A stretch of DNA of 64,000 nt from NCBI RefSeq assembly GCF_963921235.1, contig NC_086097.1, positions 79,858,001-79,922,000 on the forward strand, given 5' to 3'. How positions within the stretch are numbered: the first letter of the stretch is position 1; every line of letters starts with the position of its first letter. The position numbers were made by a program, and so were the translations under genes. This document shows positions 1 to 59,866 of this stretch, one piece after another. The notes below the pieces were generated by a model. It did not search any database. It was not told where the DNA came from and saw nothing but the letters and a program-made list of their open reading frames with translations. Source of the stretch: Mobula hypostoma (Eukaryota).

Positions 1-3000
1 AATTGATTATTTTTTCATTGATTCTCGTCTCATTCCTTCAGTGATTAAATGTGATTATGATTCTATAACCATTTCGGATCATGCTCCACTTAAGCTTTCT
101 ATTAAAATTATGGCCAATATATCAAACAATAGACAATGGCGTTTTAATTCGCTGTTGCTTCAGGACTCGGACTTTGTTAATTTTATGAATGAACAGATTG
201 AGCTTTTTTTTACAATTAACCATACAGAAGATATTTCGGTTAACACTCTTTGGGACACTTTTAAAGCCTATATTCGGGGTCAGATTATTTCGTATTCCGT
301 TGCTTTGAGGAAGAAACAGAAGCAGGAGGAGATGGTAATTGTGGACAAGATTAAAGAAATTGATAAGAAATATGTTATGGCTCCTTCTGAGGAGCTATAC
401 AAACAAAGAACTGAACTTCAAATGGAACACAGTTTACTACTCTCGTCCTCGATTGTAAACCAATTAAAGAAAACAAGAAGTGATTTTTATGTTCACAGTG
501 ATAAAATTGGCAAGCTGCTGGCTAATCAATTGAAATCTAATTATGTTAAATCTCAAATCAATCAGATTTATAACCAAAATGATCGATTGATATTGGATCA
601 TGTGGGGATTAATCAAACCTTTTGTGATTTTTATTCTTCTTTATACCAATCAGAGTCTCCTCGAGATTCTAAATATATGAATGATTTTTTAGATAAGTTA
701 GACTTCCCTCTGATTTCACAGGATATGTCTTCTTTATTAGATACTTCCATTACAATGGATGAGATTAAGAATGTTATTTTTTCTATGAATCTGGGGAAAG
801 CTCCTGGCCCTGATGGGTTTACCGTTGAATTTTATAAATGTTTTGCTTCTTTATTGATTCCTTGGCTCTATAAGGTTTTTGAGGCTTCTTTGAAACTTGG
901 TAAACTTCCGGAATCTTTTAATAGAGCATCAATTTCTTTAATACTAAAGAAGGATAAAGACCCTGCTCAATGTGCATCTTATAGACCAATATCTTTATTA
1001 AATGTTGATTCTAAAGTTTTTTCTAAGTTATTAGCAAATAGACTAGAAAAAGTACTTCCTTCTATTATTTCGGAAGACCAAACGGGTTTTATTAAAGGTC
1101 GTTACTCTTTTTATAATATTCGTACATTGTTAAATATCGTTTATACTCCCTCACAAAATGTTCCTGAGTGTGTTATTTCTTTAGATGCCGAGAAAGCTTT
1201 TGATAGAGTAGAATGGCCTTATTTATTTAAGGTGCTTGAAATGTTTAATTTTAGCTTGAAATTTATATCCTGGATTAAACTGTTATATTACTCCCCTGTA
1301 GCCTCGGTTCGTACTAACTTCTTAAACTCACCTTTTTTTCCTCTCTTTCGTGGTACTCGACAAGGCTGTCCTCTTAGTCCCCTATTATTTGATATTGCAT
1401 TAGAACCTCTTGCAATTGCTATTCGAGAATCTTTAAATATTACTGGGATAACTCGGGGATTAAAGTCCCATAAATTATCACTCTATGCTGATGATTTACT
1501 TTTATATATTTCTAATCCTGAGAGATCCATTCCTGCTGTTTTAGAGTTATTAGCACAATTTGGTCTTTTCTCAGGTTATAAATTAAATCTTAGTAAGAGT
1601 GAACTTTTTCCGATTAATAAACATCTTCCCTTATATTATAAATTTCCATTTAAATTGATTAATAATTACTTTTCATATCTTGGGATTAAAATTACTTGTA
1701 AACATAAAGATTTATTTAAGACTAACTTTTTACCATTAATAGACCATATTACTCAACTTTCATCTAAATGGTTTCCCTTATATTTAACTTTGATTGGTCG
1801 TATTAATGCAGTTAAGATGTTTTTTTTGCCAAAATTTTTATATGTGTTTCAGGCATTACCAATTTCCGTTCCTAAATCTTTTTTTGATAAAGTTGACTCT
1901 AAAATTTCTTCATTTATTTGGCAGAACAAGAATCCGAGACTGGGTAAAATACATTTACAGAAAGCTAAGAGAGATGGAGGTTTAGCATTACCTAACTTTA
2001 GATTTTATTATTGGGCTATTAATATTCGACATATGAAATTTTGGTTACTTGACCGGGACATACTATTTATTCCTAAATGGGTAGCATTGGAATTACAATC
2101 TGTTCAGGGTTATACACTTGGTTCTATTTTAGGTTCCTCTCTTCCTTTTGATTCGAAACGTCTTAAGCAGGTCTCTAACCCGATAGTTAAATATGCTTTG
2201 CGCATTTGGTTTCAATTCAGAAAATTTTTTGATCTTAATCAATTCGGGTTAGCGATTCCTATTTTAGGTAACATATTTTTTCCTCCCTCTTTTACGGATC
2301 GCGCTTTTCAAACTTGGAAGACTAAGGGTATTTTACGGTTTTTGGATTTATTTTTAGATGGTTCCCTTATGTCTTTTGAACAATTATCTAATAAATATAA
2401 CTTATCAAGAATACATTTTTTTAGATATTTACAAGTTAGAAATTTCCTAAGTACTATACTTACTTCCTTTCCAATGCTTCCTCCTATATATATTTTAGAT
2501 TCGATAATTAACCTTAATCCATGTCAGAAAGGTGCATCGGCTATGATTTATAATATTATTATGAAACTTAGGAAAGCTCCATTTGATAAGATTAGGGTAG
2601 ATTGGGAACAGGAATTGGGGCTTACCATTTCTGTGGATGATTGGGGGCAGATTTTACAATTAGTTAATACTTCCTCTATTTGTGCTAAACATTCCCTAAT
2701 TCAATTTAAAGTGGTTCATAGAGCACATATGTCCAAAGATAAGTTAGCGCGTTTTTACTCGCATATTAATCCTTTCTGTGATAGATGTTCGGGGCAGATA
2801 GCCTCTTTAACTCATATGTTTTGGTCTTGCCCTACTTTGGAAACTTTTTGGAGAGATATTTTCAATATTATTTCTAAGGTATTAAATATAGATATCTCTC
2901 CTCACCCTATTACTGCTATCTTTGGACTACCTAAAATTTCTAGTAATCTTTCCCCTTCAGCCCGTAGAATGATTGCATTTCTTACTTTAATGGCGAAAAG

Positions 3001-3530
3001 ATGTATTTTACAACATTGGAAAGAGCTTAATGCTCCAACTACCTTTTTTTGGTTTTCTCAGACGATTTTATGTTTGAATCTGGAGAAAATTAGAAGTAAC
3101 CTTTATGATTCTTCATTTAAATTTGAACAGATTTGGGGACCTTTTATTCGATATTTTCATTTAATGTAATATTTACCCTTCTTGTTTTCTCTTCACTGTT
3201 TTAATGGAGGTCGGGATTGAGGACGTGATTTTAAGTTTAACTCTGTTTGGTTTCAAGTTAGCCCATTGCTTTGCTTTGCTTTTAGTTAGTTGCACGGTGG
3301 GTTTTTTTTTTGGGGTTTTTTTTTTTCTTTTTTTCCATTGATATATATAAAATCTAGTATACTATTATGTTATCTTGGTTTCTTATGCTTAAATTACATT
3401 GTTTGTAGTATTTTCTTTTTGGTATTGTTATCTTTTGGAATTTTATTATACTTTAACATTGTATTAATGTTTATATGGCTTACCTTTTTTGTATACTTAC
3501 TCAATAAAAAGATTTAAAAAGAAAAAGAAA
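1..3530 (+). mobile_element. L1-clade LINE, 3' portion (runs off the window start), with 3' UTR and A-rich tail
   Basis: ORF2 ends at 3169, followed by a T-rich 3' UTR, AATAAA at ~3503 and an A-rich tail to 3530 that abuts the RTE-type element. Confidence 0.95.
2..3169 (+). CDS. L1 ORF2p (C-terminal end of APE endonuclease, reverse transcriptase, cysteine-rich domain); 5'-partial, uninterrupted
   Basis: Frame is open from base 2 (IDYFFID...SDHAP endonuclease motifs); KAPGPDG, YRPISLLN, DAEKAFD, QGCPLSPLLF, YADD, YLGI, C-terminal CDRC..H...C. Confidence 0.95.
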   Translation: MDYFFIDSRLIPSVIKCDYDSITISDHAPLKLSIKIMANISNNRQWRFNSLLLQDSDFVNFMNEQIELFFTINHTEDISVNTLWDTFKAYIRGQIISYSVALRKKQKQEEMVIVDKIKEIDKKYVMAPSEELYKQRTELQMEHSLLLSSSIVNQLKKTRSDFYVHSDKIGKLLANQLKSNYVKSQINQIYNQNDRLILDHVGINQTFCDFYSSLYQSESPRDSKYMNDFLDKLDFPLISQDMSSLLDTSITMDEIKNVIFSMNLGKAPGPDGFTVEFYKCFASLLIPWLYKVFEASLKLGKLPESFNRASISLILKKDKDPAQCASYRPISLLNVDSKVFSKLLANRLEKVLPSIISEDQTGFIKGRYSFYNIRTLLNIVYTPSQNVPECVISLDAEKAFDRVEWPYLFKVLEMFNFSLKFISWIKLLYYSPVASVRTNFLNSPFFPLFRGTRQGCPLSPLLFDIALEPLAIAIRESLNITGITRGLKSHKLSLYADDLLLYISNPERSIPAVLELLAQFGLFSGYKLNLSKSELFPINKHLPLYYKFPFKLINNYFSYLGIKITCKHKDLFKTNFLPLIDHITQLSSKWFPLYLTLIGRINAVKMFFLPKFLYVFQALPISVPKSFFDKVDSKISSFIWQNKNPRLGKIHLQKAKRDGGLALPNFRFYYWAINIRHMKFWLLDRDILFIPKWVALELQSVQGYTLGSILGSSLPFDSKRLKQVSNPIVKYALRIWFQFRKFFDLNQFGLAIPILGNIFFPPSFTDRAFQTWKTKGILRFLDLFLDGSLMSFEQLSNKYNLSRIHFFRYLQVRNFLSTILTSFPMLPPIYILDSIINLNPCQKGASAMIYNIIMKLRKAPFDKIRVDWEQELGLTISVDDWGQILQLVNTSSICAKHSLIQFKVVHRAHMSKDKLARFYSHINPFCDRCSGQIASLTHMFWSCPTLETFWRDIFNIISKVLNIDISPHPITAIFGLPKISSNLSPSARRMIAFLTLMAKRCILQHWKELNAPTTFFWFSQTILCLNLEKIRSNLYDSSFKFEQIWGPFIRYFHLM

Positions 3531-6480: not shown

Positions 6481-9400
6481 AAGAGGAGTGTGATAAGAGA
6501 GAACAATGGACCATTGAAGAAAGGAGGAGGGGCACCAGAGGAAGGTTATGGGCAGGAGATAGAAGGGATAAAAGGGGAACCAGAATGGGGAATGGAAAAA
6601 GAGAGAAGGGGAAGGGGGAAAGGAGAAATTACCAGGTTAGAGAAATAGATGTTCATGTTAGCAAATTAGAGGCAACCGAGATGGAATATGAGGTGCTGCT
6701 CCTCCATCCTAAGTTTGGCCACTTCAAGGTAATAGAGGAGGCCGTGGACTGACATGTTAGAATGGGAAGTTCAATTGAAATTGGTGGCCACTGGGAATTA
6801 CCACCTTTTGTGGCAGATAGAGCGAAGGTCCTGCAATCTACATTGGATCTCAATGATATAAAGGAGTTTGCACAAAGAGCAGTGGATACAGCAGATGACC
6901 TCGACCGACTCACGGGTGAAATGTGGGAAAGTGAAGCATAATAAAGGGTGTAAAGGTAGGAAAGTAGAAGGGCTAAAGTGCGTGTACTTCAATGCAAGAA
7001 GCATCAGGAACAAAGGTGATGAACTGAGAGCTTGGATACATACATGGAATTATGATGTAGTGGCCATTACAGTGACTTAGCTGGCGCTAGGGCAGGAATA
7101 GATTTTCAATATTCCTGGATTTCAGTGCTTTAAAAGGGATGGGGGGGGGTAAAGGGGAGGAGGGGTGGCATTACTGGTTAGGGATACTATTAGAGCTACA
7201 GAAAAGGTGGGTATTGCAGCAAGATCCTCTTTTGAGTCAGTATGGGTGGAAGTCAGGAACAGGAAGGGAGCAGTTACTCTATTGGGGGTATACTATAGGC
7301 CCCTGGAAGCAGCAGAGATACCGAGGAGCAGATTGGGAGGCAGATTTTGGAAGGGTGCAAAAATAACAGGGTTGTTATCATGGGTGACTTTAACTTCCCC
7401 AATATTGATTGATTCCAAGGGACTGGATGGGGCAGAGTTTGTTGAGTGTATCCAGGTCAGTTTCTTGTCACAGTATGTTGACAGGCCGACGCAGGGGAAT
7501 GCCATACTAGATCTAGTATTAGGTAACGAACCAGGTCAGGTCACAGATCTATCAGTGGGTGAGCACCTGGGGGACAGTGACCACCACCCCCTGGCCTTCA
7601 GCATTATCATGAAAAAGGATAGAATCAGAGAGGACAGGAAAATTTTTAATTGGGGAAGGGCAAATTATGAGGTTATAAGGCTAGAACTTGCAGGTGTGAA
7701 TTGGGATGATGTTTTTGCAGGGAAATGTACTATGGACATGTGGTCGATGTTTAGAGATCTCTTGCAGGGTGTTAGGGATAAATTTGTCCCAGTGAGGAAG
7801 ATAAAGAATGGTAGGGTGAAGGAATCATGGGTGACAAGTGAGGTGGAGAATCTAGTCAGGTGGAAGAAGGCAGCATACATGAGATTTAGGAAGCAAGGAT
7901 GAGATGGGTCTATTGAGGAATATAGGGTAGCAAGAAAGAAGCTTAAGAAGGGGCTGAGGAGAGCAAGAAGGAGGCATGAGAAGGCCTTGGCGAGTAGGGT
8001 AAAGGAAAACCCCAAGGCATTCTTCAATTATATGAAGAACAAAAGGATGACAGGAGTGAAGGTAGGACCGATTAGAGATAAAGGTGGGTAGATGTGCCTG
8101 GAGGCTGTGGAAGTGAGTGAGGTCCTCAATGAATACTTCTCTCTGTATTCACTAATGAGAGGGAACTTGATGACAGTGAGGACAATATGAGTGAGGTTGA
8201 TGGTCTGGAGCATGTTGGAGTTGTTAAAATACATTAAGATAGATAAGTCCCTGGGGCCTGATGGAACATTCCCCAGGCTGCTCCACGAGGCGAGGGAAGA
8301 GATTGCTGAGCCTCTGGCTAGGATCTTTATGGCCTCGTTGTCCACGGGAATGGTACCGGAGGATTGGAGGGAGGCGAATGTTGTCCTCTTGTTCAAAAAA
8401 GGTAGTAAGGATAGTCTGGGTAATTATAGACCAGTGAGCCTTATGTCTCTGGTGGGAAAGCTGTTGAAAAAGATTCTTAGAGATAGGATCTATGGGCATT
8501 TAGAGAATCATGGTCTGATCAGGGACTGTCAGCATGGCTTTGTGAAGGGCAGATCATGTCTAACAAGCCTGACAGAGTTCTTTGAGGAGGTGACCAGGCA
8601 TAGAGATGAAGGTAATGCAGTGGACGTGATCTGTATGGATTTTAATAAGGCATTTGACAAGGTTCCACACGGTAGGCTTATTCAGAAAGTCAGAAGGCAT
8701 GGGATCCAGGGAAGTTTGGCCAGGTGGGTTCAGAATTGGCTTGCCTGCAGAAGGCAGGGGGTTGTGGTGGAGGGAGTACATTCGGATTGGAGGGTTGTGA
8801 CTAGTGGTGTCCCACAAGGATCAGTTCTGGGACCTCTACTTTTCACAATTTTTATTAACAACCTGGATTTAGGGGTAGAAGGGTGGGTTGGCAAGTTTGC
8901 AGACGACACAAAGGTTGGTGGTGTTGTAGATAGTGTAGAGGATTGTCAAAGATTGCAGAGAGACATTGATAGGTTGCAGAAGTGGGCTGAAAAGTGGCAG
9001 ATGGAGTTCAACCCGGAGAAGTGTGAGGTAGTACACTTTGGAAGGACAAACTCCAAGGCAGAGTACAAAGTAAATGGCAGGATACTTGGTAGTGTGGAGG
9101 AGCACAGGGACCTGGGGGTACATGTCCACAGATTCCTGAAAGTTGCCTCACAGGTAGATAGGGTAGTTAAGAAAGCTTATGGGGTTTTAGCTTTCATAAG
9201 TCGAGGGATAGAGTTTAAGAGTCATGAGGTAATGATGCAGCTCTATAAAACTTGGTTAGGCCACACTTTGAGTACTGTGTCCAGCTCTGGTCGCCTCACT
9301 ATAGGAAGGATGTGGAAGCATTGGAAAGGGTACAGAGGAGATTTACCAGGATGCTGCCTGGTTTAGAGAGTATGCATTATGATCAGAGATTAAGGGAGTT

Positions 9401-10280
9401 AGGGCTTTACTCTCTGGAGAGGAGGAGGATGAGAGGAGACATGATAGAGGTATACAAGATAATAAGAGGAAATAGATAGAGTGGATAGCCAGTGCCTCTT
9501 CCCCAGGGCACCACTGCTCAATACAAGGGGACATGGCTTTAGGGTAAGGGGTGGGAAGTTCAAGGGGGATATTAGAGGAAGGTTTCTTACTTAGAGAGTG
9601 GTTGGTGCGTGGGATGCACTGCCTGAGACAGTGGTGCAGGCAGGTACACTAGTGAAATTTAAGAGGCTACTAGACAGGTATATGGAGGAATTTAAGGTGG
9701 GGGAGGTTATATGGGAGGCAGGGTTTGAGGGTCGGCATAACAGTGTGGGCCGAAGGGCCTGTACTGTGCTTACTTTTCTATGTTCTAAGTTCTCACCTGG
9801 AAGGCCTGTTTGGTGCCTTCAAAGGTGGTGAGGGAGTAGATATAGCACTTGTCACATTTTGAGGGATATATGCCAGGAGAGAAGATCAGTTGGGAGAGAT
9901 GAGTGGGAAGGGATTCACGTAAAGCGTGGAAAATGGAGAGGGTTGAAGAGCAAGATGTTCTCAGTAGTAGGATCACTAAGGAGAATGATATGCTGGATAT
10001 AAAGATTCGTGGGGTGGTAGGTAAGGACAAGGGAAACCCTACCCCTCTTACTACGGTGGGCGGATGAGGTGAGGGCAAATGTATGGAAAATGGAGGAAAT
10101 GTGTGTGTGGGCAGCATTAGTGGTGGTGGAATGGAAACCCCATTCCTTGAAGGAGGAGGGCATCGCAGATGTTCCAGAATGGAAAGGCTCATCTTGAAAA
10201 CAGACGTGGTGGAGACAAAGGAATTATGAAAGGAAATAGCATTTTTACAAGTGATAGGGTAGGAAAAGGTATAGTATACC
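6481..10280 (-). mobile_element. Degenerate Penelope-like element (GIY-YIG region) split by a CR1 insertion; pieces ~6481-6925 and ~9792-10280
   Basis: Homologous to the PLEs at 22182-22917 and 38605-39665; ...CACGGGTGAAATGTG (6925) resumes as CTCACCTGGAAGG (9792), sequences that are contiguous in the other copies. Confidence 0.8.
6926..9793 (+). mobile_element. CR1 LINE, 5'-truncated, disabled ORF2 (EN+RT)
   Basis: YFNARSI, LDLVL, SDH, YRPVSL, GVPQGSVLGPLLF, FADD; tail TTCTATGTTCTAAGTTCT; internal stops and frameshifts. Confidence 0.95.
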
Positions 10281-10690
10281 TCCTCCATACCCTCTGTCTA
10301 CACTTCCTGCTGTCTCAGAAAAACAGCTAACATAATCAAAGATCCCAAGCACCTGGGCATTCTCTCTTTGCCTCCCTCCTCACCCAAATGGACAAAAATA
10401 AATAGGACTGAAAACACACACCATTATGCACAAAGAGAGCTTCTATCCTACCTACGTATTATTAACCAGTGCCCTGGTATGATAATTTGGACACTTGACC
10501 TCAAAATTTACCTCACTATGGCCTTGCACCTTATTGAATGCCTGTACTGCACTTTCTCTGTAACTGTAACATTTTATTCTTTATTTCCCTTGTACTATTT
10601 TGATGCATTGTTGTAATGAAATGATGTACATGGATGGCATACAAAATAATTTTTCACTATAACTTAGTACATGTGGCAATAACAAGGAAA
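10281..10690 (+). mobile_element. Old Rex1-like LINE 3' end
   Basis: Degenerate ANIIKDP.HPG-type coding similar to the reverse strand of 15120-15370, followed by a typical 3' UTR. Confidence 0.5.
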
Positions 10691-11008
10691 TTTACTTGTT
10701 CCACCTCAGCTGCACAGTCTGAAAAGTTATGTATTTATGCTCATTAGTAGAAAAACTGCATTGGCATGTTCAACTAGTCTCCAATTGAAATAATTTGCTC
10801 ATATGTATGAGGCTCAGGAATGTGCACAGGTACTCACTGAAGGAGGCCATTTGACATTCTGAATCTATGGCAGCTCCCAAAACAATCCTAAAAATCATTT
10901 TTCCCTCTTATTGCCCTGTACTCTCTCTCATTCACTAATCAACTCCTTACCATAACCACATTCCACCCCCCCCCACCCCATTCTCCAACCCATTCACCTA
11001 TACGAAGA

Positions 11009-11232
11009 CAACAGGAATTCTGCAGATGCTGGAAATTCAGGCAACACACATCAACGTTGCTGGTGAACGCAGCAGGCCAGGCAGCATCTCTAGGAAGAGG
11101 TACAGTCGACGTATCGGGCCGAGACCCTTCATCAGGACTAACCTGACGAAGGGTCTCGGCCCGAAACGTCGACTGTACCTCTTCCTAGAGATGCTGCCTG
11201 GCCTGCTGCGTTCACCAGCAACTTTGTGTGTT
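11009..11232. mobile_element. ORF-less fold-back Penelope-terminus element with hammerhead motifs
   Basis: ~90 bp inverted arms (11043-11136 and 11142-11232), 5-nt apex, one-sided 34-nt tail; 13-bp TSD ACCTATACGAAGA at 10996-11008 and 11233-11245. Confidence 0.9.
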
Positions 11233-11245
11233 ACCTATACGAAGA

Positions 11246-11420
11246 GCAATTTACATTAACCAATTAAGTTACAAACATGTTTTTACAATGTAAGATAAAA
11301 CTGAGCATCCAGCACAAACCTATACAATCACAGGGAGATTTTTGCAAAGTATGCACAGACAGCATTGGAGGTCTGGATTGACCCTGGATTGCTGGAGCTC
11401 AGTGACAAAAATAACTGGTG
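11246..11420 (-). mobile_element. Degenerate tRNA-derived SINE (V-SINE/HE1-like) hosting the fold-back element
   Basis: Reverse-strand similarity to the SINE core at 28767-29025 and 53693-53975. Confidence 0.5.
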
Positions 11421-12689
11421 TGCCACTGTGTCAGTCCTCTCCACCTCTATCCCCTCTGCAAATTAAAACACTTAATATCTCACTTTTCCAGATCTGATGA
11501 AGGGTAGATGAAATGAAACTGTTCTCCACTCCACAAATAATGGCCCAACATGTTGACATCACCATTATTTCCTATTTCTATCTTGATTCAGCAACTGCAA
11601 TTTCTTTTCTTTGTGAACTTTTATCCAGTCACCCAATGCAAATTTCAACTTATGCTGTGTGCTTACCCTTCCACTATGGAGGGAAAGGTGAGCTGAATCT
11701 GAAACACTTTTCATCAATAAAATAAGTTGCTTTATGTCTGCAAGATTTTAGAAATCTATCAAAATTAGTTACCAAAAATTAAACAAAATGTGAAAATTTT
11801 TATATTTCATAAAATTCCAAGTGGATGGGAAGCAACAACCATTGCTGCAAAAATAATTATTTCTGAGTAATTACAAAAATATTTATAGAGATAGATTACT
11901 TTCAATATATACACAAAAGCTATGAACTTATATTAAATCCAAGAGGAGTTAATAATATTGGAGAACTAAACAGTTTAATCTTAAACAAATAACCAAGCTG
12001 AATTTTGAAGTATTGTCTTCATGGAAAAAGATTCCTGTTATATACCTCACAACTGCAAAGCACTGAATAGCACTTGCACAACAAAAAGAAATGCTTATCT
12101 AAAGTGACAAGCATCATATATAGATTAACTCTCCAGCACTGAAAATTAAATATTTTACATTCAAAATTTCATTCCATTGAATTTAAACTCTTGCACTCAC
12201 ATTTATAAAATGTGCTTGTTTCAAAATAATTTTACCTTTTTTTTTCTTTTGCAATTTAATCTCACTTTGTCCTTCTGTATTGGATTTGACATTGAATTCA
12301 CTAGTCTAGTTTATTCATTCTACTTAGTCCTTCCACGATTAATAACTTAGAAACTGGATTACATAGAAAAAGTGGTCTTTCTGCATGATTTATGGAGCCC
12401 ATGAATTTTTGATCTGACAGTTCTTGGTACAGTTCATACCAGCATAGATCAGACATTTGACTTTCTGGAGACACACACTAAATGTTGTAATACTTATTTG
12501 AAGTGTCTGCAGCTAAAATTGGGTTTCTTTTTGTTAGAAACATTGTTGGCCACTCACACCTAACCATATTTTCATAATGTTCACTGTAGCTGCATGGTTT
12601 AAAAAGTTAATGCTTGTTTGTTTTGCTAGTTCAAGGATGCCTGAAGTCTTGGGAAGCTACTACGTGCTGCTAGAGCAACTTTGGATTAA

Positions 12690-14310
12690 GTATGAGAGTG
12701 TCAGGGGGCAGAACTGAGTATAATTGCTATTACTAAGGAAAGATGCTTTAGAAACTATAAGATCTGAAGGTAGATAAGTAACCTGGACCAGATAGACTAT
12801 ACCTGAAGGGATTTTGGAGGCATTAGTAATGAATTTTCAAAAATCACTAGTTTCAGGCATAGTTCCCGAGGACTGGAAAATTGCAGATGTCACTCCATTC
12901 TTCAGGAAGGAAGGGAGACAGAAGGAAGGAAATTATATGCCAGTTGGCCTGACTTCAGTGATTGGGAAGTTGTTGGATATAATTGTTAAGAAAGAGGTCT
13001 CTGGGTACTTGGAGGCACAAGATAAAATAGGCCAAAGCCAGTATGGTTTCCTTAAGGGAAAATCTTGACAGACAAACCTGTTGAAATCTTTTGAAGAAAT
13101 AATAAACAGGATAAAGGAAAATTGGTGGATGTTGTGTACTTGGATTTTTCAGAAGGCCTTTAACAATGTGCCGCACATGAGGCTGCTTAACAAGACAAGG
13201 GCCCATGGTATTACAGGAAAGATACTAACATGGACAGAGGATTGGTTGATCAGTAGGAGACAGTGTTGGAATGAAGAGGGCCTATTCAGGTTGGCTACCG
13301 GTGACTTGTGGTGTTCCGCAAGGGTCGGTGTTAGGATCGTTTCTTCTGTTATATATCAATGTTATGATGATGGATTTGATAGCTTTGTGGCCAAGTTTGT
13401 GGATGATACAAAGATAGGTGGAGGGGCAGGTAGTGTTGAGGTGGCTGGGAGGCTGCAGAAGAACTTAGACAAATTAGGAGAATAGGCAAGGAAGTGGCAG
13501 ATGGAACATATTGTCTGTAAATATACAGTCATGCACTTTGGTAGAAGTAAATGCAAAAATCCGAGGTGCAAAGGGTCTAGGGAGTTCTCATGCAGGATTC
13601 CCTAAAGGCTAATTTGCAGGTTGAGTCGGTGGTGAGGGAGACAAGTGCAATGCTAGCATTTATTTTGCGAGAACTAGAATAAAAAAGTAAAGATATAATG
13701 CTGAGGCTTTATAAGGCACTGGTCAGGCCTCACTTGGAGTGTTGTGAGCAATTTTGGGCCTCTTATCTAGGAAAGAATGTCCTGACATTGAAGAGGGTTT
13801 AGAGGAAATTCATAAGAATGATTCCAGGAATGAAAGGATTACCCTATGAGGAGCATTTAATGGCTCTGAGTCTGTACTTGCTGGAATTTAGAATAAGGGA
13901 GGATCTCATTGAAACCTATCGAATGTTGAATGGCCTAGATAGAGTGGATGTGGAGAGGATGTTTCCGATAGTGCGGAGTCTAACACTAGAGGGCACAGCC
14001 TCAATAGATGGACATCAATTTCTTTAGCCAGAAGGTGAGCCTCAGAATAGAAGGATGTCCATTTAGAACAGAGACTCTTCAGCCAGAGGCTGGTGAATCT
14101 GTGGAAGTTGTTGCTACCAGCAGCTGTGGAGGACAGGTTATTAGGTGTTCTTAAGGCGGAGGTTGATAGGTTCTTGATTAACCAGGGCGTGAAAGGATGA
14201 GAAGGCAGGAGAATGGGGTTGAGAAGAAAAATGGATCAGCCATGATGAAATATCGGAGCAGATTTGACGGGTTGAATGGTCTAAACGTGCTCCTATACCT
14301 TATGGCTTCC
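12690..14310 (+). mobile_element. Degenerate CR1 LINE, 3' half
   Basis: VPEDWKIADVTP, QKAFNNVPH, AKFVDDTKIGG; tail CCTTATGG. Confidence 0.9.
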
Positions 14311-14854
14311 ATGAAGTGATAACAGAATTGCCTAGGTATCTTATAGCAAAAGGTGGATTTTACTTTTACCTTTTCTTGAGCAGAGTTTGTCAAGTTGAGG
14401 GGCCATGTAGACTCATAAAGGGTTGCAGGCTTTTCCAAAGTTCAGGGAGTTAAATACTGCAATGTTGTGGATCCTTGACAGAATTTGGAGCTCAACATAA
14501 AATGCATTATTCAGAGGACAATTTCTCACAGTTATCATGTATTCAAGCAGTTCACTTTATCCTTAATCTCAATCACTTTGCACAGTCTTCCATATTTTAG
14601 TCAATGGCTCACATAGAAGACTGGGTCATTGAAGATAAAGGGGATCTCAATCGTCTCAGCCTTTATACTTCAGTATGTGTTGCAGCTGCTGAAGTAAACA
14701 CCTCCTTAACGATTTAAAATGCCACCAACTTCAATAAGATTTCCCCATGACATAAATTTTACTTTCTCCTCAGCTCTTAACATATGAAAGCAACTATTTC
14801 CCTTCATGAACAAGAGCCCCGATGACAGGTCTCAGACCAAAACTTAGACTGTTT

Positions 14855-17800
14855 TAAGTCAAGTCAAGTCAAGTCACTTTTTACTGTCATTTCGACCATA
14901 ACTGCTGGTACAGTACACAGTATAAACGAGACAACGTTTTACAGGACCATGGTGCTACATGAAACAATAGAAAAACTACACCGAACTACGTAAAAACAAA
15001 CAAAAACTACACTAGACTACAGACCTACCCAGGACTGCATGAAGTGCACAAAACAGTGCAGGTATTACAATAAATAATAAACAAGACAATAAGCACAGTG
15101 GAGGGCAGTAGGTTTGTGTCAGTCCGGGCTCTGGGTATTGAAGAGTCTGATGGCTTGGGGGAAGAAACTGTTACATAGTCTGGTCGTGAGAGCCCGAATA
15201 CTTCGGTGCCTTTTGCCAGATGGCAGGAGGGAGAAGAGTTTGTATGAGGGATGCGTGGGGTCCTTCATAATGCTGTTTGCTTTATGGATGCAGCTTGTGG
15301 TGTAAATCGCTGTAATGGCGGAAAGAGAGACCCCGACGATCTTCTCAGCTGACCTCACTACCCACTGCAGGGTCTTAGAACATAGAAATACAACAGTACA
15401 GCACAGTACAGGCCCTTCGGCCCACAATATTATGCCAACCCTTAAACCCTGCCTCCCATATAACACCCCACCTTAAATTCCTCCATATACCTGTCTAGCA
15501 GCTCCTTAAATTTCACTAGTGTATCTGCCTCCACCACTAACTCAGGCAGTGCATTCCATGCACCAACCACTCTCTGAGTAAAAAAACCTTCATCTAATAT
15601 CCCCCTTGAACTTCCCACCCCTTACCTTAAAGCCATGTCTTCTTGTATTGAGCAGTGGTGCCCTGGGGAAAAGGCACTGGCTGTCCACTCTATCTATTCC
15701 TCTTATTATCTTGTACACCTCTATCATGTCTCCTCTCATCCTCCTTCTCTCCAGAGAGTAAAGCCCTAGCTCCCTTAATCTCTGATCATAATGCATACTC
15801 TCTAAACCAGGCAGCATCCTGGTGAATCTCCTCTGCACCCTTTCCAATGCTTCTACATCCTTCCTATAGTGAGGCGATCAGAACTGGACACAGTACTCCA
15901 AGTGTGGCCGAACCAGAGCTTTATAGAGCTGCATCATTACCCCACGACTCTTAAACTCTATCCCTCGACTTATGAAAGCTAACACTCCATAGGCTTTCTT
16001 AACTACCCTATCTACCTGTGAGGCAACTTTCAAGAATTTGTGGACATGTACCCCCAGATCTCTCTACTCCTCCACACTACCAAGTATCCTGCCATTTACT
16101 TTGTACTCTGCCTTGGAGTTTGTCCTTCCAAAGTGTACTACCTCACACTTCTCTGGGTTGAACTCCATCTGCTACTTCTCAGCCCACTCCTGCATCTTAT
16201 CAATGTCTCTCTGCAATCTTTGACAATCCTCTACACTGTCCACAACACCACCAACCTTTGTGTCGTCTGCAAACTTGCCAACCCACCCTTCTACCCCTAA
16301 ATCCAGGTTGTTAATAAAAATTGTGAAAAGTAGAGGTCCCAGAACTGATCCTTGTGGGACACCACTAGTCACAACCCTCCAATCCGAATGTACTCCCTCC
16401 ACCACAACCCCCTGCCTTCTGCAGGCAAGCCAATTCTGAACCCACCTGGCCAAACTTCCCTGGATCCCATGCCTTCTGACTTTCTGAATAAGCCTACCGT
16501 GTGGAACCTTGTCAAATGCCTTATTAAAATCCATACAGATCACGTCCACTGCATTACCTTCATCTCTATGCCTGGTCACCTCCTCAAAGAACTCTGTCAG
16601 GCTTGCTGGACACGATCTGCCCTTCACAAAGCCATGCTGACAGTCCCTGATCAGACCATGATTCTCTAAATGCCCATAGATCCTATCTCTAAGAATCTTT
16701 TTCAACAGCTTTCCCACCAGAGACATAAGGCTCACTGGTCTATAATTACCCAGACTATCCTTACTACCTTTATTGAACAAGAGGACAACATTCGCCTCCC
16801 TCCAATCCTCCGGTACCATTCCCGTGGACAACAAGGACATAAAGATCCTAGCCAGAGGCTCAGCAATCTCTTCCCTCGCCTCGTGGAGCAGCCTGGGGAA
16901 TGTTCCATCAGGCCCCAGGGACTTATCTATCTTAATGTATTTTAACAACTCCAACATGCTCCAGACCATCAACCTCACTCATATTGTCCTCACTGTCATC
17001 AAGTTCCCTCTCATTAGTGAATACAGAGAGAAGTATTCATTGAGGACCTCGCTCACTTCCACAGCCTCCAGGCACATCTACCCACCTTTATCTCTAATCG
17101 GTCCTACCTTCACTCCTGTCATCCTTTTGTTCTTCATATAATTGAAGAATGCCTTGGGGTTTTCCTTTACCCTACTCGCCAAGGCCTTCTCATGCCTCCT
17201 TCTTGCTCTCCTCAGCCCCTTCTTAAGCTTCTTTCTTGCTACCCTATATTCCTCAATAGACCCATCTCATCCTTGCTTCCTAAATCTCATGTATGCTGCC
17301 TTCTTCCACCTGACTAGATTCTCCACCTCACTTGTCACCCATGGTTCCTTCACCCTACCATTCTTTATCTTCCTCACTGGGACAAATTTATCCCTAACAC
17401 CCTGCAAGAGATCTCTAAACATCGACCACATGTCCATAGTACATTTCCCTGCAAAAACATCATCCCAATTCACACCTGCAAGTTCTAGCCTTATAACCTC
17501 ATAATTTGCCCTTCCCCAATTAAAAATTTTCCTGTCCTCTCTGATTCTATCCTTTTCCATGATAATGCTAAAGGCCAGGGGGTGGTGGTCACTGTCCCCC
17601 AGTTGCTCACCCACTGAGAGATCTGTGACCTGACCCGATTTGTTACCTAATACTAGATCTAGTATGGCATTCCCCCTAGTCGGCCTGTCAACATACTGTG
17701 ACAGGAATCCATCCCGGACACACTTAACAAACTCTGCCCTGTCCAAACCCTTGGAACTAATCAGGTGCCAATCAATATTAGGGAAGTTAAAGTCACCCAT

Positions 17801-19195
17801 GATAACAACCCTGTTATTTTTGCACCTTTCCAAAATCTGCCTTCCAATCTGCTCCTTGGTATCTCTGCTGCTACCAGGGGGCCTATAGAATACTCCCAAT
17901 AGAGTAACTGCTCCCTTCCTGTTCCTGACTTCTACCCATACTGACTGAAAAGAGGATCCTGCTACATTACCTACCCTTTCTGTAGCTGTAATAGTATCCC
18001 TGACCAGTAATGCCATCGCTCCTCCCCTTTTTCCTCCCTCTCAGTCCCTTTTAAAGCACTGAAATCCAGGAATATTGAGAATCCATTAATGGCCAATACC
18101 TCATAATTCCATGCATGTATCCAAGCTCTCAGTTCATCACCTTTGTTCCTGATGCTTCTTGCATTGAAGTACATGCAGTTTAGCCCTTCTACCTTACTAC
18201 CTTTCCACCCTTTACACAAGTTTCTCTTTCCTCAAAGCCTCTTTACATGTTAGATCCAGCTTTACTCCATGTACTATACTTGCAGTTCTCTCATGACCTT
18301 TATCCTCCTCCACCTCACTATCTGCTCTAACACTCTGGTTCCAGTCCCCCTGCAAATCTAGTTTAACCCTCCCCCCCCCCCCCCCCCCCAGAGCAGCACT
18401 AGCAAATTCTCCCACAAGGATGTTAGTCCCCCTCCAGTTCAGGTGCAACCCGTCCCGTCAGAACAGGTCTCACCTTCCCTGGAACAAGGCCTAATTGTCC
18501 AGAAACATGAAGCCCTCCCTCCTGCACCAACTCCTTAGCCACGTATTTAGCTGCATTATCTTCCTATTTCTAGCCTCACGAGCACGTGGCACGGGTAGAA
18601 TCCACGTCTTCTGATCCAAGGTGGTGCAATTTCCGAACCAAGCAGTGATGGAGCTGCTCAGGATGCTCTCAATACGACCTCTGTAGAATGTGGTGAGGAT
18701 CGGGGGTGGGAGATGGACTTTTCTCAGCCTTCACAGAAAGTAGAGATGCTGCTGGGCTTTCTTTGCTATGGAGCTGGTGTTGAAGGACAGTGAGATTCTC
18801 CACCATGTGAACACCAAGAAATTTGGTGTTCTTAACGATCTCTACGGATGAGTCGTCGATGTTCAGCCGAGAGTGGTCGCTCCATGTCCTCCTGAAATCA
18901 ACAACCATCTCTTTTGTTTTGTTCACATTCAGAGACAGGTTGTTAGCTCTGCACCAGTCCATCGGTCGTTGCACCTCTTCTCTATATGCTGACTCATCGT
19001 TCTTGCTGATGAGACCCACCATGGTCATGTCATCGGTAAACCTGATGATGTGGTTCGAGCTGTGTGTTGCAGCACCGTTGTGGGTCAGCAGAGTGAACAG
19101 CAGTGGACTGAGCACACAGCCCTGGGGGGCCCCTGTGCTCAGTGTGATGGTGTAGGAGATGCTGCTTCCAATCCGGACTGACTGGGGTCTCTTTT
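14855..19195 (-). mobile_element. Rex1/Babar LINE fragment split by CR1; pieces 14855-15376 and ~18606-19195
   Basis: GAPQGCVLSPLLF, FTDD, KFLGV in ORF 18669-19199; DPTHPSYKLFSLLPSG in ORF 15119-15466; (AAGTC)4 tail at 14856; GTCTT lies on both sides of the CR1. Confidence 0.85.
15377..18605 (-). mobile_element. CR1 LINE, truncated within ORF1, disabled; inverted relative to the copy at 6926-9793
   Basis: ORFs 17267-18016, 16172-16978 and 15590-15847; end of the ORF1 esterase domain at 18400-18600; tail TATTTCTATGTTCT. Confidence 0.95.
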
Positions 19196-20520
19196 CCATA
19201 GATGTTCCCTGGCCTGTTAAGTTCCTCCAGCATTTTGTGTGTGTTGCTGATTCCCTTCAGTTTCCCTTAGTCTGTTGTTCCATCTACACTCTCCTTTCTC
19301 ATGCAACTGCAGCAGATACCACACTGTAATTTTACCTCTTCCCTCTCCCTCACCACATCTAGATTCCCAAATTGCCCTTCAAAGTGGAATAGTAATTCAT
19401 TTGCAACTCTGTCAATGTAAAGTTCTACATTTATGTAGTATTCACGATATTATCTCCTCTAATCTGGAAATACCAAATGTAAATTGGATGACTATTATTT
19501 GAGTCCCAATGTATCGTCTGTGGGGGCTGCACGGCATACAAATTTGCATAGCAAATTGCCTGCCATTTTAATTCCTCAATCTATTCCCACTCTGATCTGT
19601 GGCATCTTACACTGTTATAATGAATCCCAATGTAAGCTTGATAGATCCCGGGGGAAATCTTTATTGATCCCGGGGGAAATTGGTTTTCGTTACAGTTGCA
19701 CCATAAATAATAAATAGTAATAGAAATAGTAATAGTCATGGAAATAATAAATAGTAATAGAAAAATAGTAATAAATAGTTAAATAGTAATATGTAAATTA
19801 TGCCAGTAAATTATGAAATAAGTCCAGGACCAGCCTATTGGCTCAGGGTGTCTGACCCTCCAAGGGAGGAGTTGTAAAGTTTGATGGCCACAGGCAGGAA
19901 TGACTTCCTATGACGCTCTGTGCTGCATCTCGGAAGAATGAGTCTCTGGCTGAATGTACTCCTGTGCCCACCCAGTACAATATGTAGTGGATGGGAGACA
20001 TTGTCCAAGATGGCATGCAACTTAGACAGCATCCTCTTTTCAGACACCTCCGTGAGAGAGTCCAGTTCCATCCCCACAACATCACTGGCCTTACAAATGA
20101 GTTTGTTGATTCTGTTGGTGTCTGCTACCCTCAGCCTGAGAAACAGCACCTGATTTTTCTGTCTGAGCATGTGATAATCTCAGGAACCCACCACTGAATT
20201 CTTTACCAGAATGGGTCATTTCTGCTATAAATCCATTTGAGTCATTGATTCTAATTTTTCACCTTTTCATATTCTTGTACTCTTTAAGTGCCCTCAGATC
20301 ATAGATTTTTTTTCCTTTTCTCTCTCACTATAAACCCATCAAGCCGATGATCTCTACAAATTATCCCCATGACCACCGTGGTCTCACCCAATCCTAACTG
20401 AAACTAGCTTAATTTCTTTCTTTCTCAGTTCTGATGAAGGGTCTTTAGCATGAAACACTTAGAGTTTCTCATTATGCAGATGCTGCCTGACCTGGTGCTT
20501 CTAACATTTACTGCCTTAAT
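19196..20520 (+). mobile_element. Old Penelope-like remnants interrupted by a Rex1 3' end
   Basis: PLE terminus at 19196-19250; degenerate GIY-YIG coding at 19300-19640 resuming at 20135 (EKQHLIF); CTGATGAAGGGTC at 20431. Confidence 0.6.
19641..20134 (-). mobile_element. Rex1/Babar-type LINE 3' end
   Basis: ORF 19835-20170 ILDNVSHPLH...TERHRKSFLPVAIKLYN; same 3' terminus as 33068-33165. Confidence 0.8.
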
Positions 20521-30186: not shown

Positions 30187-30336
30187 TTCTAAAGCTATTT
30201 GGAGTCAGGTGTTCCAATCAATGAGATGAGATTGGAGGTGTGGGTTGTAGTGGTGCCCTGTCCTATAAAAAAGACACCCAAAGTCAGGTTACTGACAGAA
30301 CCTGCTCGACTCAAGAAAGATCTGTTTATGTGCACC

Positions 30337-32045
30337 ATGCCTCAATCAAAACAACTTTCAGAGAACCTTGGAAGAAGAATTGTAGAGATGCATGAAGCTG
30401 GAAAAGGCTACAAAAACATTTCTAAAGACCATAAGACGAAGGAGCAGAAGTCGGCCATTCGGCACATCGAGTCTTCTCCGCCACTTTATCATGAGCTGAT
30501 CCATTCTCCTATTTAGTCCCACTCCCCTGCCTTCTCACCATAACCTTTGATGCCCTGGCTACTCAGATACCTATCAATCTCTGCTTTAAATACACCCAAT
30601 GACTTGGCCTCCACTGCCGCCCGTGGCAACAAATTCCATAGATTCACCACCCTCCGGCTAAAAAAATTTCTTTGCATTTCTGTTCTGAATGGGTGCCCTG
30701 CAATCCTCAAGTCATGCCCTCTCGTACTAGACTCCCCCATCATGGGAAACAACTTTGCCACATCCACTCTGTCCATGCCTTTCAACATTCGAAACGTTTC
30801 TATGAGGTCTCCCCTCATTCTTCTAAACTCCAAGGAATACAGTCCAAGAGCAGACAAACGTTCCTCATATGTTAACCCTCTCATTCCCGGAATCACTCTA
30901 GTAAATCTTCTCTGTACCTTCTCCAACGTCAGCACATCCTTTCTTAAATAAGGAGACCAAAACTGCCCACAGTACTCCAAGTGAGGTCTCACCAGCACCT
31001 TATAGAGCCTCAACATCACATCCTTGCTCCTATACTCTATTCCTCTAGAAATGAATGCCAACACTGCATTCGCCTTCTTCACCACCGACTCAAGACCTGA
31101 GTGTTCATCAGTCCACAATAAGAGTAATTGTCTACAAATGGAGGAAATTCAGTTCTGTTGTTTCTTCACCTCAGAGTGGATGTCCTGAAAAGATCACACC
31201 AAGAGCACAACTTTCAATGCTGGAGAAGGTGAAAAAGAACCCAAAGGTAACACCAAAAGACCTACAGAAATCTCTAGAACTTGGTAAATAATGTTCATGT
31301 GTCATTGCAACAATCTGTTCATATGTCCACTATCAGAAAAACACTGAACAAGAATAATGTTCATGAAGGACACCACAGAGGAAACCACTGCTCTCCAGAA
31401 AAAAAAATGGTACATGTCTCAAGTTTGCAAAAGGCCACTTGAATGTTCCACGATGCTTCTGGGACAACATTCTGTGGACAGATGAAACAAAAGTGGAACT
31501 TTTTGGCAGAAATGCACACTGCTATGTTTGAAGGAAAAAGGGCACTGCACACCAACACCAAAACCTCTTCCCAACTGTGAAGCATGGTGGAAGGAGCATC
31601 ATGGTTTGGGATTGCTTTGCTGCCTTAGGGCCAGGACAGCTTGCAATCATTGAAGGGACAATGAATTCAAAATTGTATCGAGACATTTTACAGGAGAAGG
31701 TCAGGGTAATGGTCTATCACCTGAAGCTTAAAAGAAGTTGGATGATACAACAAGACAATGATCAGAAATACAAGAGTAAATCAACAACAGAATGGCTTAA
31801 AAAGAACAGTTCTGTTTTGGAATGGCCAAGTCATAGTCCAGACCTTAACCCCACTTGAGACGATGTGGCCTGACCCGAAGCGGACTGTTCATGCAAGGCA
31901 TCCCAGAAATATTGATGAACTGAAACAGTTTTGCTTTGAGGAAAGGTCTGAAATTCCTCCTTGCCATTGTGCAAGTCTGATCAGCAGCTACAGGAAATGT
32001 TTGGTGGAGACTATTGCTGCTGCAGGAGGTTCTACCAGTTATTAA
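30337..32045 (+). pseudogene. Tc1 DDE transposase pseudogene
   Basis: MPQSKQLS..HEAGKGYKNISK, WTDETKVELF, VKHGGRSIMVW, QQDND, SPDLNP, GGSTSY*; frameshifts and a CR1 insertion. Confidence 0.9.
30431..31091 (-). mobile_element. CR1 3' fragment inserted in the transposase
   Basis: ORF 30513-31118; 6-bp TSD AAGACC at 30425-30430 and 31092-31097. Confidence 0.92.
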
Positions 32046-37756: not shown

Positions 37757-37973
37757 AGATTTCCAGACATTTTTCAAGAATGGTTTCAAAGCTAATTGTG
37801 AATTATTATATCAATGAAGGAACTATTCAGAAAATAATTAGGCATCAATTCAGATACAAATTAACAGATTTCCAGACGTTTTTCAAGAATGGTTTCAAAG
37901 CTAATTGTGAATTATTATATCAATGAAGGAACTATTCAGAAAATAATTAGGCATCAATTCAGATACAAATTAA
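37757..37973. repeat. 109-bp tandem duplication
   Basis: Units start at 37757 and 37866; one mismatch seen. Confidence 0.95.
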
Positions 37974-37992
37974 GAGTTTTCACTTAGATGTT

Positions 37993-38604: not shown

Positions 38605-39665
38605 GGAAACACACACAAAGTGCTGGAGGAACTCAGCAGGACAGGCAGCATCTATGGAAAAGAGTACAGTTGATGTTTCAGGCTGAGACCCTTCAGCAGG
38701 ACTGGAGGAAATAAGTTGAGGTGTAGATTTAAAAAGGGAGGGGGAGAGAGAAACTTAAGGTGATAGGTGAAACCTGAAAGGGAGGGGGAATGAAATAAAG
38801 AGCTGGGAAGTTGATTGTTGTAAGAGACATAAGACCATGGAAGAAAGAAAAGGGGGGAGGAGCACCAGAGGGAGGCAATGGGTGGGTAAGGAGATAACAT
38901 AAGAGAGGGAAAAGGGAATGGGGGGGAGCTGGGGGCATTACAGGAAGTTTGAGAACTAGATGTTCATGCCTTCAGATTGGAGGCTACCCAGATGGTATAT
39001 AAGGTGTTGTTCCTCCATCCTAAATGTGGCCTCATCACGACAGTAGAGGAAGCCAATGATAATAGACATATCAGAGTGGGAATGAGAAGTGGAATTAAAA
39101 TGGGTGGCCACTGGGACATCCCATTTTGTCTGGCAGACAAAACGCAGGTGCTCAGTGAAGTGGTCTCCCAATCTATACTGGGTCTCACCGCTGTACAGGA
39201 AGCCACACCAGGAGCACCAGACACAATTTATGAACCCAACAGACTCACAGGTGAGGTGTCGCCTCACTTGGAAGGACTGTTTAGGGCCCTGAAGGTAGTG
39301 AGGGAGGAGGTGTAGGGGCAGGTGTAGCACTTGTTCCGCTTGCAAGGATAAGTGCCAAGAGGGGTGGGAAGGGACGAATAGAGAAGGGGAGTCGCATAGG
39401 GAGCGATCCCTGCAGAAAGCAGAAAGTGGGGGGAGAGAAAGATGTGCTTGGTAGTGTGATCCCATTGGAGATGGCGGAGGATTCAGAGAATTATGTGATG
39501 GACATGGAGGTTGGTGGGGTTATAGGTGAGGACAAGAGGAACCCTATCCTTGGTAGGGTGGCGGAGGAATGGGGCAAGAGCAGATGTGCATGAAATGGAA
39601 GAGATGCGATTGAGGGCAGCATTGATGGTAGTGGAAGGGAAGCCCCGTTTTTTGAAAAAGGAGTG
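38605..39665 (-). mobile_element. Penelope-like element, 3' part, with degenerate hammerhead
   Basis: DRVPLVLTY, CSWCGFLYSGET, RMEEQHLIYHLGSLQ; terminus reads CTGCTGAAGGGTCTCAGCCTGAAAC on the minus strand. Confidence 0.9.
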
Positions 39666-40599
39666 GTGTACATATTTGCATGATGTACGTTTAGTAGTAA
39701 CAAGATAGAATAACATCCTTACACTTAACAAATGTCCAATCAATCATGACATTAGCACATTTGTATTTGAACCAAGTGTGGTCGAAACTGCTTGCGTAAA
39801 AGAAACTGGGCTAAAGACGGGAAAACAACATTATTTTGGTGTACAAACAGATTAACATAATACATCCACAACCATTTTGCTCTGGGACCAATTGTATTAA
39901 TATTGAGCAGTGACCTCAGAATTATGGGCTTACAATCAAGAGAATGGTGTGATCAAGAGATGTGGAATGCGGATAAGAACAAGAATCAGACTGGTGATCA
40001 GGTCGGATAGGCAGGGAAGGTAGTCAGTCCCTAAAGAGTTCTGGTCTGGTTATAGAAGTATGCTGGAGATATCTTCCAACACAGAATTAATAAATGTGTT
40101 TATCAAGGAGTGACCACAGATTAATAATTATATCCAGAATAAAGCGATTTAATTTTCTGTGTAGTATGCAGAGGAAAGGCAGTGCACATGTAATAAAATC
40201 AAAGTATTCCAATTACATGATCACTGCAATTATGAAGCTCAACTGGAAGTAATTGACTGAATTATCAGCACAGTGTAAAATACTACACAAAAAAGCTGCT
40301 AGTTTTCATGTATATAATATTCTATCTCATTGAAGGAAACAATACGAATGGATCCAATATCTAGGTTATTGCAAAATGGAGTAAAGCAGGGAACAAATAG
40401 AATAACCATATCACTTTAGTTAGAAGACACCATACAAACAGTGAGATAATGCTTCCATAATCATACTTAGAAGAAATTACAATGATTACAGCACAACATA
40501 TTGGCACAGTTGAACACTACCCATCGCAAAAAAATAGTTCATACTCTTTTAATGCACTAAGATACATTGTAGATTATGCTCACATTGTTTGAAAACTTT

Positions 40600-44740: not shown

Positions 44741-45807
44741 TTCATAATGATTAGATTCTTTCATTGAGATAGCAAATTGCATTTCATTGAGAGGAAACAA
44801 TTGCTGGCATATAAATTGCCATGGATGTAGTCTCTGTACTCAGCTCTTAAAGGACAATACAGATATGACTGCAGACTCCAAACATTTGTATTTTGGGAAC
44901 ACTATAATGATAGCAAACCCCCGTGCCTGCTCTACCTTTTCCTGTAGTCTGAAGGAAAAGGTTTCTGAAGGCACACTTCCCTAAGCATAGATTTTATGCA
45001 ATGTTGCAAATGCAGCAGGGAACAGAAAACTGTGAGACAGAGCAGAGATCAGATGGTAGCAGCCTGGAATAATTCTGAAGTTAGGAAGTTGAAAGTAACT
45101 GTAACTTTCCCCCCACAACCATTCAAAGCAGTCAAGATCAGGGGGCATGAGGGTTGGTGATCCCCTTGGTATGCAAATTGGTGAAACTAGAGTTCGGGAC
45201 CTAGTCATTCATGTCCTGTCACTGGGGAGTCTGGAGTTCAGGGTCCTCATCCAGGAACCTCACTTGTACTGAGGTCAATACTGAAAATCGAAGCCCAAAC
45301 ATCTGCTGGAAGTCTGGAAGCCTGAAAGAGCCTGTGTCTATGAGTCTCCGCAAATCCAGTGGGGAAGTCGAAGCCCAATGTCTTTGAATCTACAAATCCA
45401 TTGGAGGCTGAAGATGGCTGATCCTGGAGTTGGGAGTACTGTGTGTGCATGGGAGAGAGGAATGAGGCTTGTTTTGTTGTTGTTGTTGTTCAGTTACTTC
45501 TTATATTCTGTTATTATTGTGTTCTGTGTTGTTCTGCAGAGCACTGTGGGCACGTTATGTTGGCGCCAGAAAGTGTGGCAACACTTGCGGGCTACCCCCA
45601 GCACACCATTGGCATGTGATGGTTGTCAACACAAACGATGCATTTTATTGTATGTTTGATTGAACGTATAATAACTAATAAATCCTACTCTGAAATAAGC
45701 AATCCTTTATTTTAAAAGTGATTTCTGATTCTGTATTGGTCCACAAGAGGCAATTGTTGTCCACTTTCACTTTCCAGACTTTTCAGGATTTTATCCTAAT
45801 CAAAGAT

Positions 45808-50787: not shown

Positions 50788-51304
50788 CATTTTGAAATCT
50801 GAAAGTACTTTAAGGCAATTACCACCATTTGCAATAGATTGATTTTACTTCTCTTAATACTAACAAAATAAATGCATAAATCTAGAGTTCACAACTGATC
50901 CTGTTGTTTCTGGAGATGGGCATGAATCTATAACTCAAATATATTTTTCAATTAGCTCATCTGAAAAGAAAGCACTGTCATAGTTTTCTTTTCAATGCAC
51001 AAGAATAACCAACATCAAATAGGTATATATTGGTACTACATGACACAAGGGATTCAGTTCTTCATGCTTCATGCGATTATGTAATTATAGTGCATCTTCC
51101 TTGATTTTCCGGATATCCTGGCACAGTTTAACCCTGAACTAATATTCCTTTTAGAATTATCACTGAGTCTTCTTTCTCTGCTGATTTTCCGGTAGGTTCC
51201 AGAATGCAATAAACAGGAATTCTGCAGATGCTGGAAATTCAAGCAACATACATCAAAGTTGCTGGTGAACGCAGCAGGCCAAGCAGCATCTATAGGAAGA
51301 GGCG

Positions 51305-51342
51305 CAGTCGACGTTTCAGGCCGAGACCCTTCGTCAGGACTA
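51305..51342 (-). ncRNA. Minimal type I hammerhead ribozyme motif
   Basis: Exact reverse complement of 51670-51707. Confidence 0.78.
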
Positions 51343-51669
51343 ACTGAAGGAAGAGTGAGTAAGGGATTTGAAAGCTGGAGGGGGAGGGGGAGATGCAAAA
51401 TGATAGGAGAAGACAGGAGGGGGAGGGATAGAGCCGAGAGCTGGACAGGTGATAGGCAAAAGGGGATACGAGAGGACCATCCTCTGGGTCACCCCCCCCC
51501 GCCTTGTCTTTCTTCCCGGACCTCCTGTCCCATGATCCTCTCGTATCCCCTTTTGCCTATCACCTGTCCAGCTCTCGGCTCTATCCCTCCCCCTCCTGTC
51601 TTCTCCTATCATTTTGGATCTCCCCCTCCCCCTCCAACTTTCAAATCCCTTACTCACTCTTCCTTCAGT

Positions 51670-51707
51670 TAGTCCTGACGAAGGGTCTCGGCCTGAAACG
51701 TCGACTG
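51670..51707 (+). ncRNA. Minimal type I hammerhead ribozyme motif
   Basis: TAGTC-CTGACGA-AGGGTCTCGGCCT-GAAAC-GTC-GACTG; predicted cleavage after 51702. Confidence 0.78.
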
Positions 51708-59843: not shown

Positions 59844-59847
59844 TAAG

Positions 59848-59866
59848 TGGGGTTCTCGTCCGCGAT
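59848..59866 (+). promoter_or_regulatory. Primer-binding site, tRNA-Pro-like
   Basis: TGGGGTTCTCGTCCGCGAT versus the canonical tRNA-Pro PBS TGGGGGCTCGTCCGGGAT; 4 nt downstream of the LTR. Confidence 0.75.

Follow-up and report, generated by a model that had tools for sequence, protein, structure and literature searches.

Two decayed copies of a CR1-type long interspersed nuclear element (LINE) in the genome of Mobula hypostoma face each other in opposite orientation across about 5.6 kb and share an internal tract that is almost identical, down to the same disabling mutations. This raises the question how two separately inserted elements came to carry the same lesions while their outer parts differ. 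The copies reside in a window of 64,000 nucleotides, the whole stretch of DNA that was analysed (contig NC_086097.1, positions 79,858,001 to 79,922,000), and are referred to by window positions as copy A (6925..9791, plus strand) and copy B (15377..18605, minus strand). A previous reading of the window, here called the original prediction, had proposed ectopic gene conversion between the inverted copies. Our analysis leads to the same explanation, based on a bounded tract, private alleles largely confined to this tract and independent insertion of the two elements. We consider it highly likely that the shared tract results from a recent non-crossover ectopic gene conversion, in which about 1.3 kb was copied one way between the CR1 copies.

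Self-comparison of the window returned a single long inverted pair, 6942-9793 against 18214-15377, with an overall identity of 94.1%. Direct comparison of 7613-8927 with the reverse complement of 16242-17556 reproduced the original count of 8 mismatches in 1315 sites without indels; the mismatches are located at 7825, 8118, 8332, 8336, 8397, 8556, 8561 and 8563 in the numbering of copy A. By contrast, the flanks in the same alignment are different at 108 of 1502 sites and contain 10 indel events. The left flank (6942-7612) contributes 56 differences in 643 sites (8.7%) and 4 indel events, the right flank (8928-9793) 52 differences in 859 sites (6.1%) and 6 indel events. Six differences in the 60 nt beyond 8968 had been noted before and were found at 8972, 8974, 8980, 8991, 8996 and 9015. 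The difference rates of tract and flanks are clearly distinct (Fisher p = 1.3e-21): about 95 differences would be expected in the tract from the flank rate, compared to the 8 observed, and in every one of 20,000 permutations even the 1315-column window poorest in differences contained at least 30. A change-point fit placed the edges of the tract at 7613 and 8927, the same positions as originally proposed, with support ranges of 7567-7642 and 8898-8971. A rare allele common to both copies at 7588 adjoins the left edge, and the true edge may lie slightly further to the left, at 7567-7588. With the best-fit edges, the homogenised tract occupies 7613..8927 (plus strand) in copy A and 16242..17556 (minus strand) in copy B, at a distance of 7314 bp. 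Secondary homogenised patches in the flanks were considered as well, but the longest identical runs there, 59 and 87 nt, were not significant (p = 0.20 and 0.16, respectively).

Within the tract, both copies carry the premature TGA and TAG codons that had been reported at 7900 and near 8089. The TGA occupies 7900..7902 (plus strand) with the changed base at 7901, corresponding to position 17268 in copy B, and the TAG occupies 8089..8091 (plus strand) with the changed base at 8089, corresponding to 17080. A shared deletion proposed near 8215 is indeed present in both copies, as a loss of 23 nt after 8217 (8217..8218, plus strand) between 5-nt direct microhomologies, but a second shared lesion, a deletion of 1 nt near 8143 (8142..8144, plus strand), had been overlooked. 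Together, the two deletions remove 24 nt, so that the reading frame is restored downstream.

The explanation by conversion could be refuted if these lesions were common to many dispersed copies of the family, and the original prediction had named a defective master lineage as a possible source. We therefore surveyed public contigs from four runs that resemble copy A between 7300 and 9300 with 90% likeness; two of these runs come from the organism that matched best and the other two from two further organisms. The CR1 subfamily of the pair is very abundant, and the 35,259-65,271 contigs matched per run represent it as a whole. In all four runs, 99.4-99.97% of the family depth has another letter at 7901 and 8089. 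Loose contig ends at both deletion sites in all four runs show that family members retain 23 additional bases after 8217 and one additional base near 8143, and between 17 and 63 contigs for each run and site lack the respective deletion. At site 8625, no contig with the letter of the pair was found in run X5, a gap in filtered contigs that carries no evidential weight. A table of rare alleles was assembled from 40 of the 84 difference rows, picked by support; 39 rows were usable after removal of row 7755, which was majority-different in run X9 only. Rare alleles of copy A were also present in copy B in 24 of 26 tract rows versus 2 of 13 flank rows (p = 3.2e-6). The two flank alleles in common are those at 7588, which probably extends the tract, and at 9134, which may represent an older small conversion, a variant of the source gene or a recurrent change. 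Contig depth does not equal copy number and the table contains the best supported rows, but the contrast between tract and flanks is independent of both. The shared alleles are distributed over the three codon positions as 10/8/4 (22 rows), without a third-position bias, as predicted for decay after insertion. The rarity of the stops in the family contigs of the four runs and the concentration of rare-allele sharing in the tract lead us to reject a common defective master as origin of the shared lesions.

Both elements appear to be CR1-type LINEs of the same subfamily, as judged from domain order, tail and nearest relatives. Both copies are 5'-truncated and decayed, and retain the AP-like endonuclease and, after it, the reverse transcriptase (RT) of the second open reading frame (ORF2), as well as a tail of short repeats at the 3' end. 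Pfam domains PF14529 and PF03372 were detected in the 5' frame of copy B and PF00078 in the 3' frame of copy A, and ORF2 of the pair is colinear with a full-length relative (P0011) over approximately 930 aa. The 3' ends of both copies consist of imperfect short repeats of 7-8 nt without poly(A). A short tandem-repeat tail instead of poly(A) is the pattern of CR1 elements, as is frequent truncation at the 5' end. The nearest named RT matches were shark proteins with 72-73% identity, followed by RT proteins from turtles and birds with about 50-55%, all of which we take to be CR1 elements. The best identity in protein searches for further copies of the subfamily was 74%, which is too distant for checking the residues private to the pair. 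Outside the tract, each copy carries its own private lesions. In agreement with the original prediction, the 5' truncation points differ: copy A starts at about 6925 and copy B at 18605, and the additional 390 nt or so of copy B match the sequence that follows ORF1 in the CR1 element at 34.3-34.6 kb.

The independent origin of the two insertions, which had also been predicted, is supported by their host sequences, which are unlike each other and each collinear across the insertion. The host of copy A is an old repeat, presumably Penelope-like and without a Pfam match, that belongs to the same family as the sequence at 38930-39700. The left part of this host (6484..6924) aligns up to offset 330 of a reference copy, and the alignment to that copy continues from offset 333 in the right part (9792..10275), collinear with the left part; a target-site duplication is absent and 2-3 host bases were lost. 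Copy B interrupts an unrelated RT-bearing LINE, which we assume to be L2 or Rex/Babar-like. The 5' part of this host (18606..19256, minus strand) and its 3' part (14840..15376, minus strand, with an approximate far end) are collinear and in frame, they match successive segments of another copy of the host LINE, and a 5-bp direct repeat brackets the insertion at 18610-18606 and 15376-15372. Given the different, collinear hosts and the different 5' ends, the pair did not originate from one duplication.

The hosts also reveal the crossover status of the pair. If the inverted copies had undergone a single crossover, their 3' flanks would be exchanged, whereas the 3' flank of each copy continues its own 5' host. 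Matches of the swapped flanks predicted by an inversion scored 23 and 26, compared to 62-240 for the collinear arrangement, which argues that the spacer between the elements (9792..15371, approximately 5.6 kb of old repeats and AT-rich unique DNA) is not net-inverted. In the assembly, the spacer has its ancestral orientation, which would also result from an even number of flips or crossovers. The two copies show a non-reciprocal sharing of more than 24 private alleles and two deletions within a tract of defined ends, and no exchange of flanking markers. The repair route that we infer is homologous repair of a break in one copy on the inverted neighbour, e.g. by synthesis-dependent strand annealing or gap repair.

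Two copies of one abundant CR1 subfamily inserted separately, with opposite orientations, into two older repeats separated by 5.6 kb, and both have since accumulated about 3.5% divergence relative to the family majority. At a much later time, according to our scenario, one copy would have suffered a break or nick and been repaired with the neighbour as template, either by intrachromatid fold-back or on the sister chromatid. About 1.3 kb would have been copied one way, carrying the private stops and deletions along, and resolution without crossover would have kept the orientation of the spacer. The 8 residual differences may be later mutations or small unconverted patches. Compared to the family majority, copy A has another letter at 73 of 2001 places (3.6%, run X1). 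The divergence within the tract corresponds to 0.3% per copy, which places the transfer within roughly the most recent tenth of the elements' history.

Four of the residual differences appear to be derived in copy A and four in copy B, with the polarity based on family contigs for 2, on protein conservation for 4 and on CpG logic alone for 2 of them. They are clustered, with 3 of the 7 gaps measuring at most 5 bp (p = 0.0007), and two of the clusters mix changes derived in A and in B (p = 0.004, depending on the CpG call at 8556). The identical runs within the tract are 364, 292, 213, 212 and 158 nt long. The clustering may reflect patches left unconverted or a series of abutting events. An extended form of the latter idea, which we regard as unlikely, is a stepwise ratchet, in which a short first conversion at about 7% divergence seeded overlapping ones and the resulting 99.4% identical inverted repeat now recurrently flips the 5.6-kb spacer as a polymorphism in a cartilaginous fish whose genome evolves slowly. 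Identification of the donor from the level of decay in the tract was attempted and discarded, as the contig totals per kind are compatible with about the same level of decay in both copies. The contigs from the two other organisms were too short for phasing across the tract edge and name no donor.

The homogenised tract is real in the sequence and very probably in the animal as well. Several points nevertheless weigh against the interpretation as gene conversion. The longest survey contigs measured about 110-160 nt and none crossed a tract edge. An assembly or polishing artefact could have overwritten the sequence of one copy with that of the other. We rate this as improbable, since both elements retain unique, collinear flanks and since the remaining 8 differences are derived about half in each copy. 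Moreover, mis-mapping in such a large family should draw a copy towards the family majority and not towards alleles present at less than 0.5% of the depth, and a fold-back chimera would be expected to duplicate the sequence as far as the fold point instead of an internal 1.3 kb. The length of the tract is another point, because mammalian conversion tracts are said to rarely exceed 1 kb (PMC3961182); a tract of 1.3 kb is long, yet precedented. A long tract with sharp edges would likewise result if an inversion had been reversed by a crossover at another point and the spacer had then undergone allelic recombination, moving the tract without true conversion. Inverted pairs of transposable elements (TEs) do mediate inversions, LINE-1 pairs at a median similarity of 97.1% (PMC9675761), and recurrent inversion is documented (PMC3961182). 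However, this route would require three events, the present orientation is the ancestral one and the similarity at the start was just about 93%, which makes it very improbable in our view.

The remaining points concern the source of the shared alleles. The rare-allele comparison is restricted to a selection of rows made by support, and a minor lineage that makes up less than about 0.5% of the family would fit the depth data, as depth is not copy number. The rare alleles at 7588 and 9134 are common to both copies although they lie outside the tract, and the differences in the flanks lean towards third codon positions (39/26/18, p = 0.017), so that part of the flank divergence may stem from different source genes. 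The two alleles outside the tract and the mild third-position excess would fit a defective or mosaic master lineage, or a third donor or complementary DNA (cDNA) that converted both copies separately; conversion mediated by cDNA is known for Ty and Tf2 of yeast (PMC6598467). Against such origins, at least 99.4% of the family depth lacks the stops in each of the four runs and 11 of the 13 flank rare alleles are not common to both copies. In addition, separate decay after insertion would strike the tract of two master-derived copies as hard as the flanks, and two separate events on neighbouring elements with identical edges are an unparsimonious assumption for a third donor. We therefore attach very little probability to a master lineage or a third donor, and retain direct conversion between the two copies as explanation.

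The tract is without function, but it leaves behind an inverted repeat with 99.4% identity, which is a better recombination substrate than the pair was earlier. Inverted repeats of this type mediate inversions in humans (PMC9675761; PMC3961182), and the original prediction had pointed to a possible flip of the intervening segment; in the one haplotype represented here, only the ancestral orientation is found. Formation of double-stranded RNA in a pre-mRNA had been suggested as well, a speculation that received no support from the scans of reading frames and RNA families. No host exon was found among 138 of 185 stop-to-stop frames of at least 48 aa in the unassigned DNA of 1-56000 by comparison with Pfam, a scan that short exons would escape and that included all 14 such frames of the spacer. 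In the 138 frames, Pfam matched nothing but TE families and half of a LIM domain that stayed under the threshold, and the Rfam search gave 0 matches. The LIM half-domain (44751-44981, plus strand) is below the Pfam cut-off (E = 1.9e-4), weakly similar to PINCH/muscle LIM protein and without clear splice sites; it is probably a decayed retrocopy fragment. The spacer contains a hairpin with arms of about 85 bp, centred near 11142 (11035-11226), which is a candidate source of breaks. A larger palindromic arrangement is centred near 51476 (51212-51765), and both structures are short-spacer inverted duplications of one terminal sequence, presumably Penelope-like.

The remainder of the window is repeat-rich animal DNA as well. 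At the left edge, an uninterrupted frame of 1055 aa with RT and zf-RVT domains (2-3169, plus strand) runs off the window and resembles an apparently intact and hence young ORF2 of the L1 type. Pieces of a Tc1/mariner transposase with HTH and DDE domains are located at 30193-30423 and 31532-31855 (plus strand), with a CR1 fragment between them. A tandem duplication of 109 bp with 97% identity (37757-37981) lies directly 3' of the CR1 element at 35-37.5 kb. At the right end, direct repeats with 94% identity (58911-59842 and 63073-63979) surround a gag-like frame with SCAN and zinc-knuckle domains and a short pol remnant. From this arrangement, 58911-63979 is an internally deleted long terminal repeat (LTR) retrotransposon that was inserted into a decayed L1-like element; at 62302-62445, it includes 5.1 repeats of a 28-bp unit.

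The CR1 pair is the product of a known DNA-repair process and not a new kind of element, and no effect on a gene has been shown. It is an unusually legible single case, with a long tract, sharp edges, more than 24 private markers, co-converted deletions and a crossover status that can be read from the hosts. Recombination between copies about 7% apart thus still occurs in a LINE-saturated genome of a cartilaginous fish. Local homogenisation can give old TE copies a young or recently duplicated appearance, and conversion can produce inversion-prone inverted repeats. A genome-wide count of such pairs would yield a rate of ectopic repair for this lineage.

In the literature, covered by titles and the openings of abstracts and mostly outside subscription papers, we found no conversion case for CR1 or elasmobranchs, which does not prove that none exists. 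For Alu, conversion between neighbouring copies was reportedly described by Aleshin and Zhi in 2010 and by Zhi in 2007. Non-allelic conversion between TE copies is established, with rates raised for Alu at distances below 10 kb (PMC6598467; PMC3670932). The Alu pairs resemble the CR1 pair in being separate insertions of one TE family less than 10 kb apart that are more alike than their age allows and form a mosaic of rare alleles. Unlike the genome-wide, statistical work on the 300-bp Alu elements, the present case is a single LINE locus in a cartilaginous fish with a 1.3-kb tract and two transferred deletions. Ectopic conversion between human LTR elements reportedly likewise moved clustered derived alleles from donor to recipient (Trombetta 2016, PMC4921805), although donors could be named from population data in that study. 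Polymorphic human inversions between inverted TE pairs include HsInv0341 (L1PA3, 20.8 kb) and HsInv0347 (THE1C, 1.6-kb repeats, 7.1 kb; PMC3961182), and LINE-1 pairs contribute inversions to the TE-mediated rearrangements (TEMR; PMC9675761). The human pairs are, like the CR1 pair, near-identical TE inverted repeats of 1-6 kb that lie a few kb apart, whereas the CR1 haplotype is in the ancestral orientation and acquired its high identity only after insertion.

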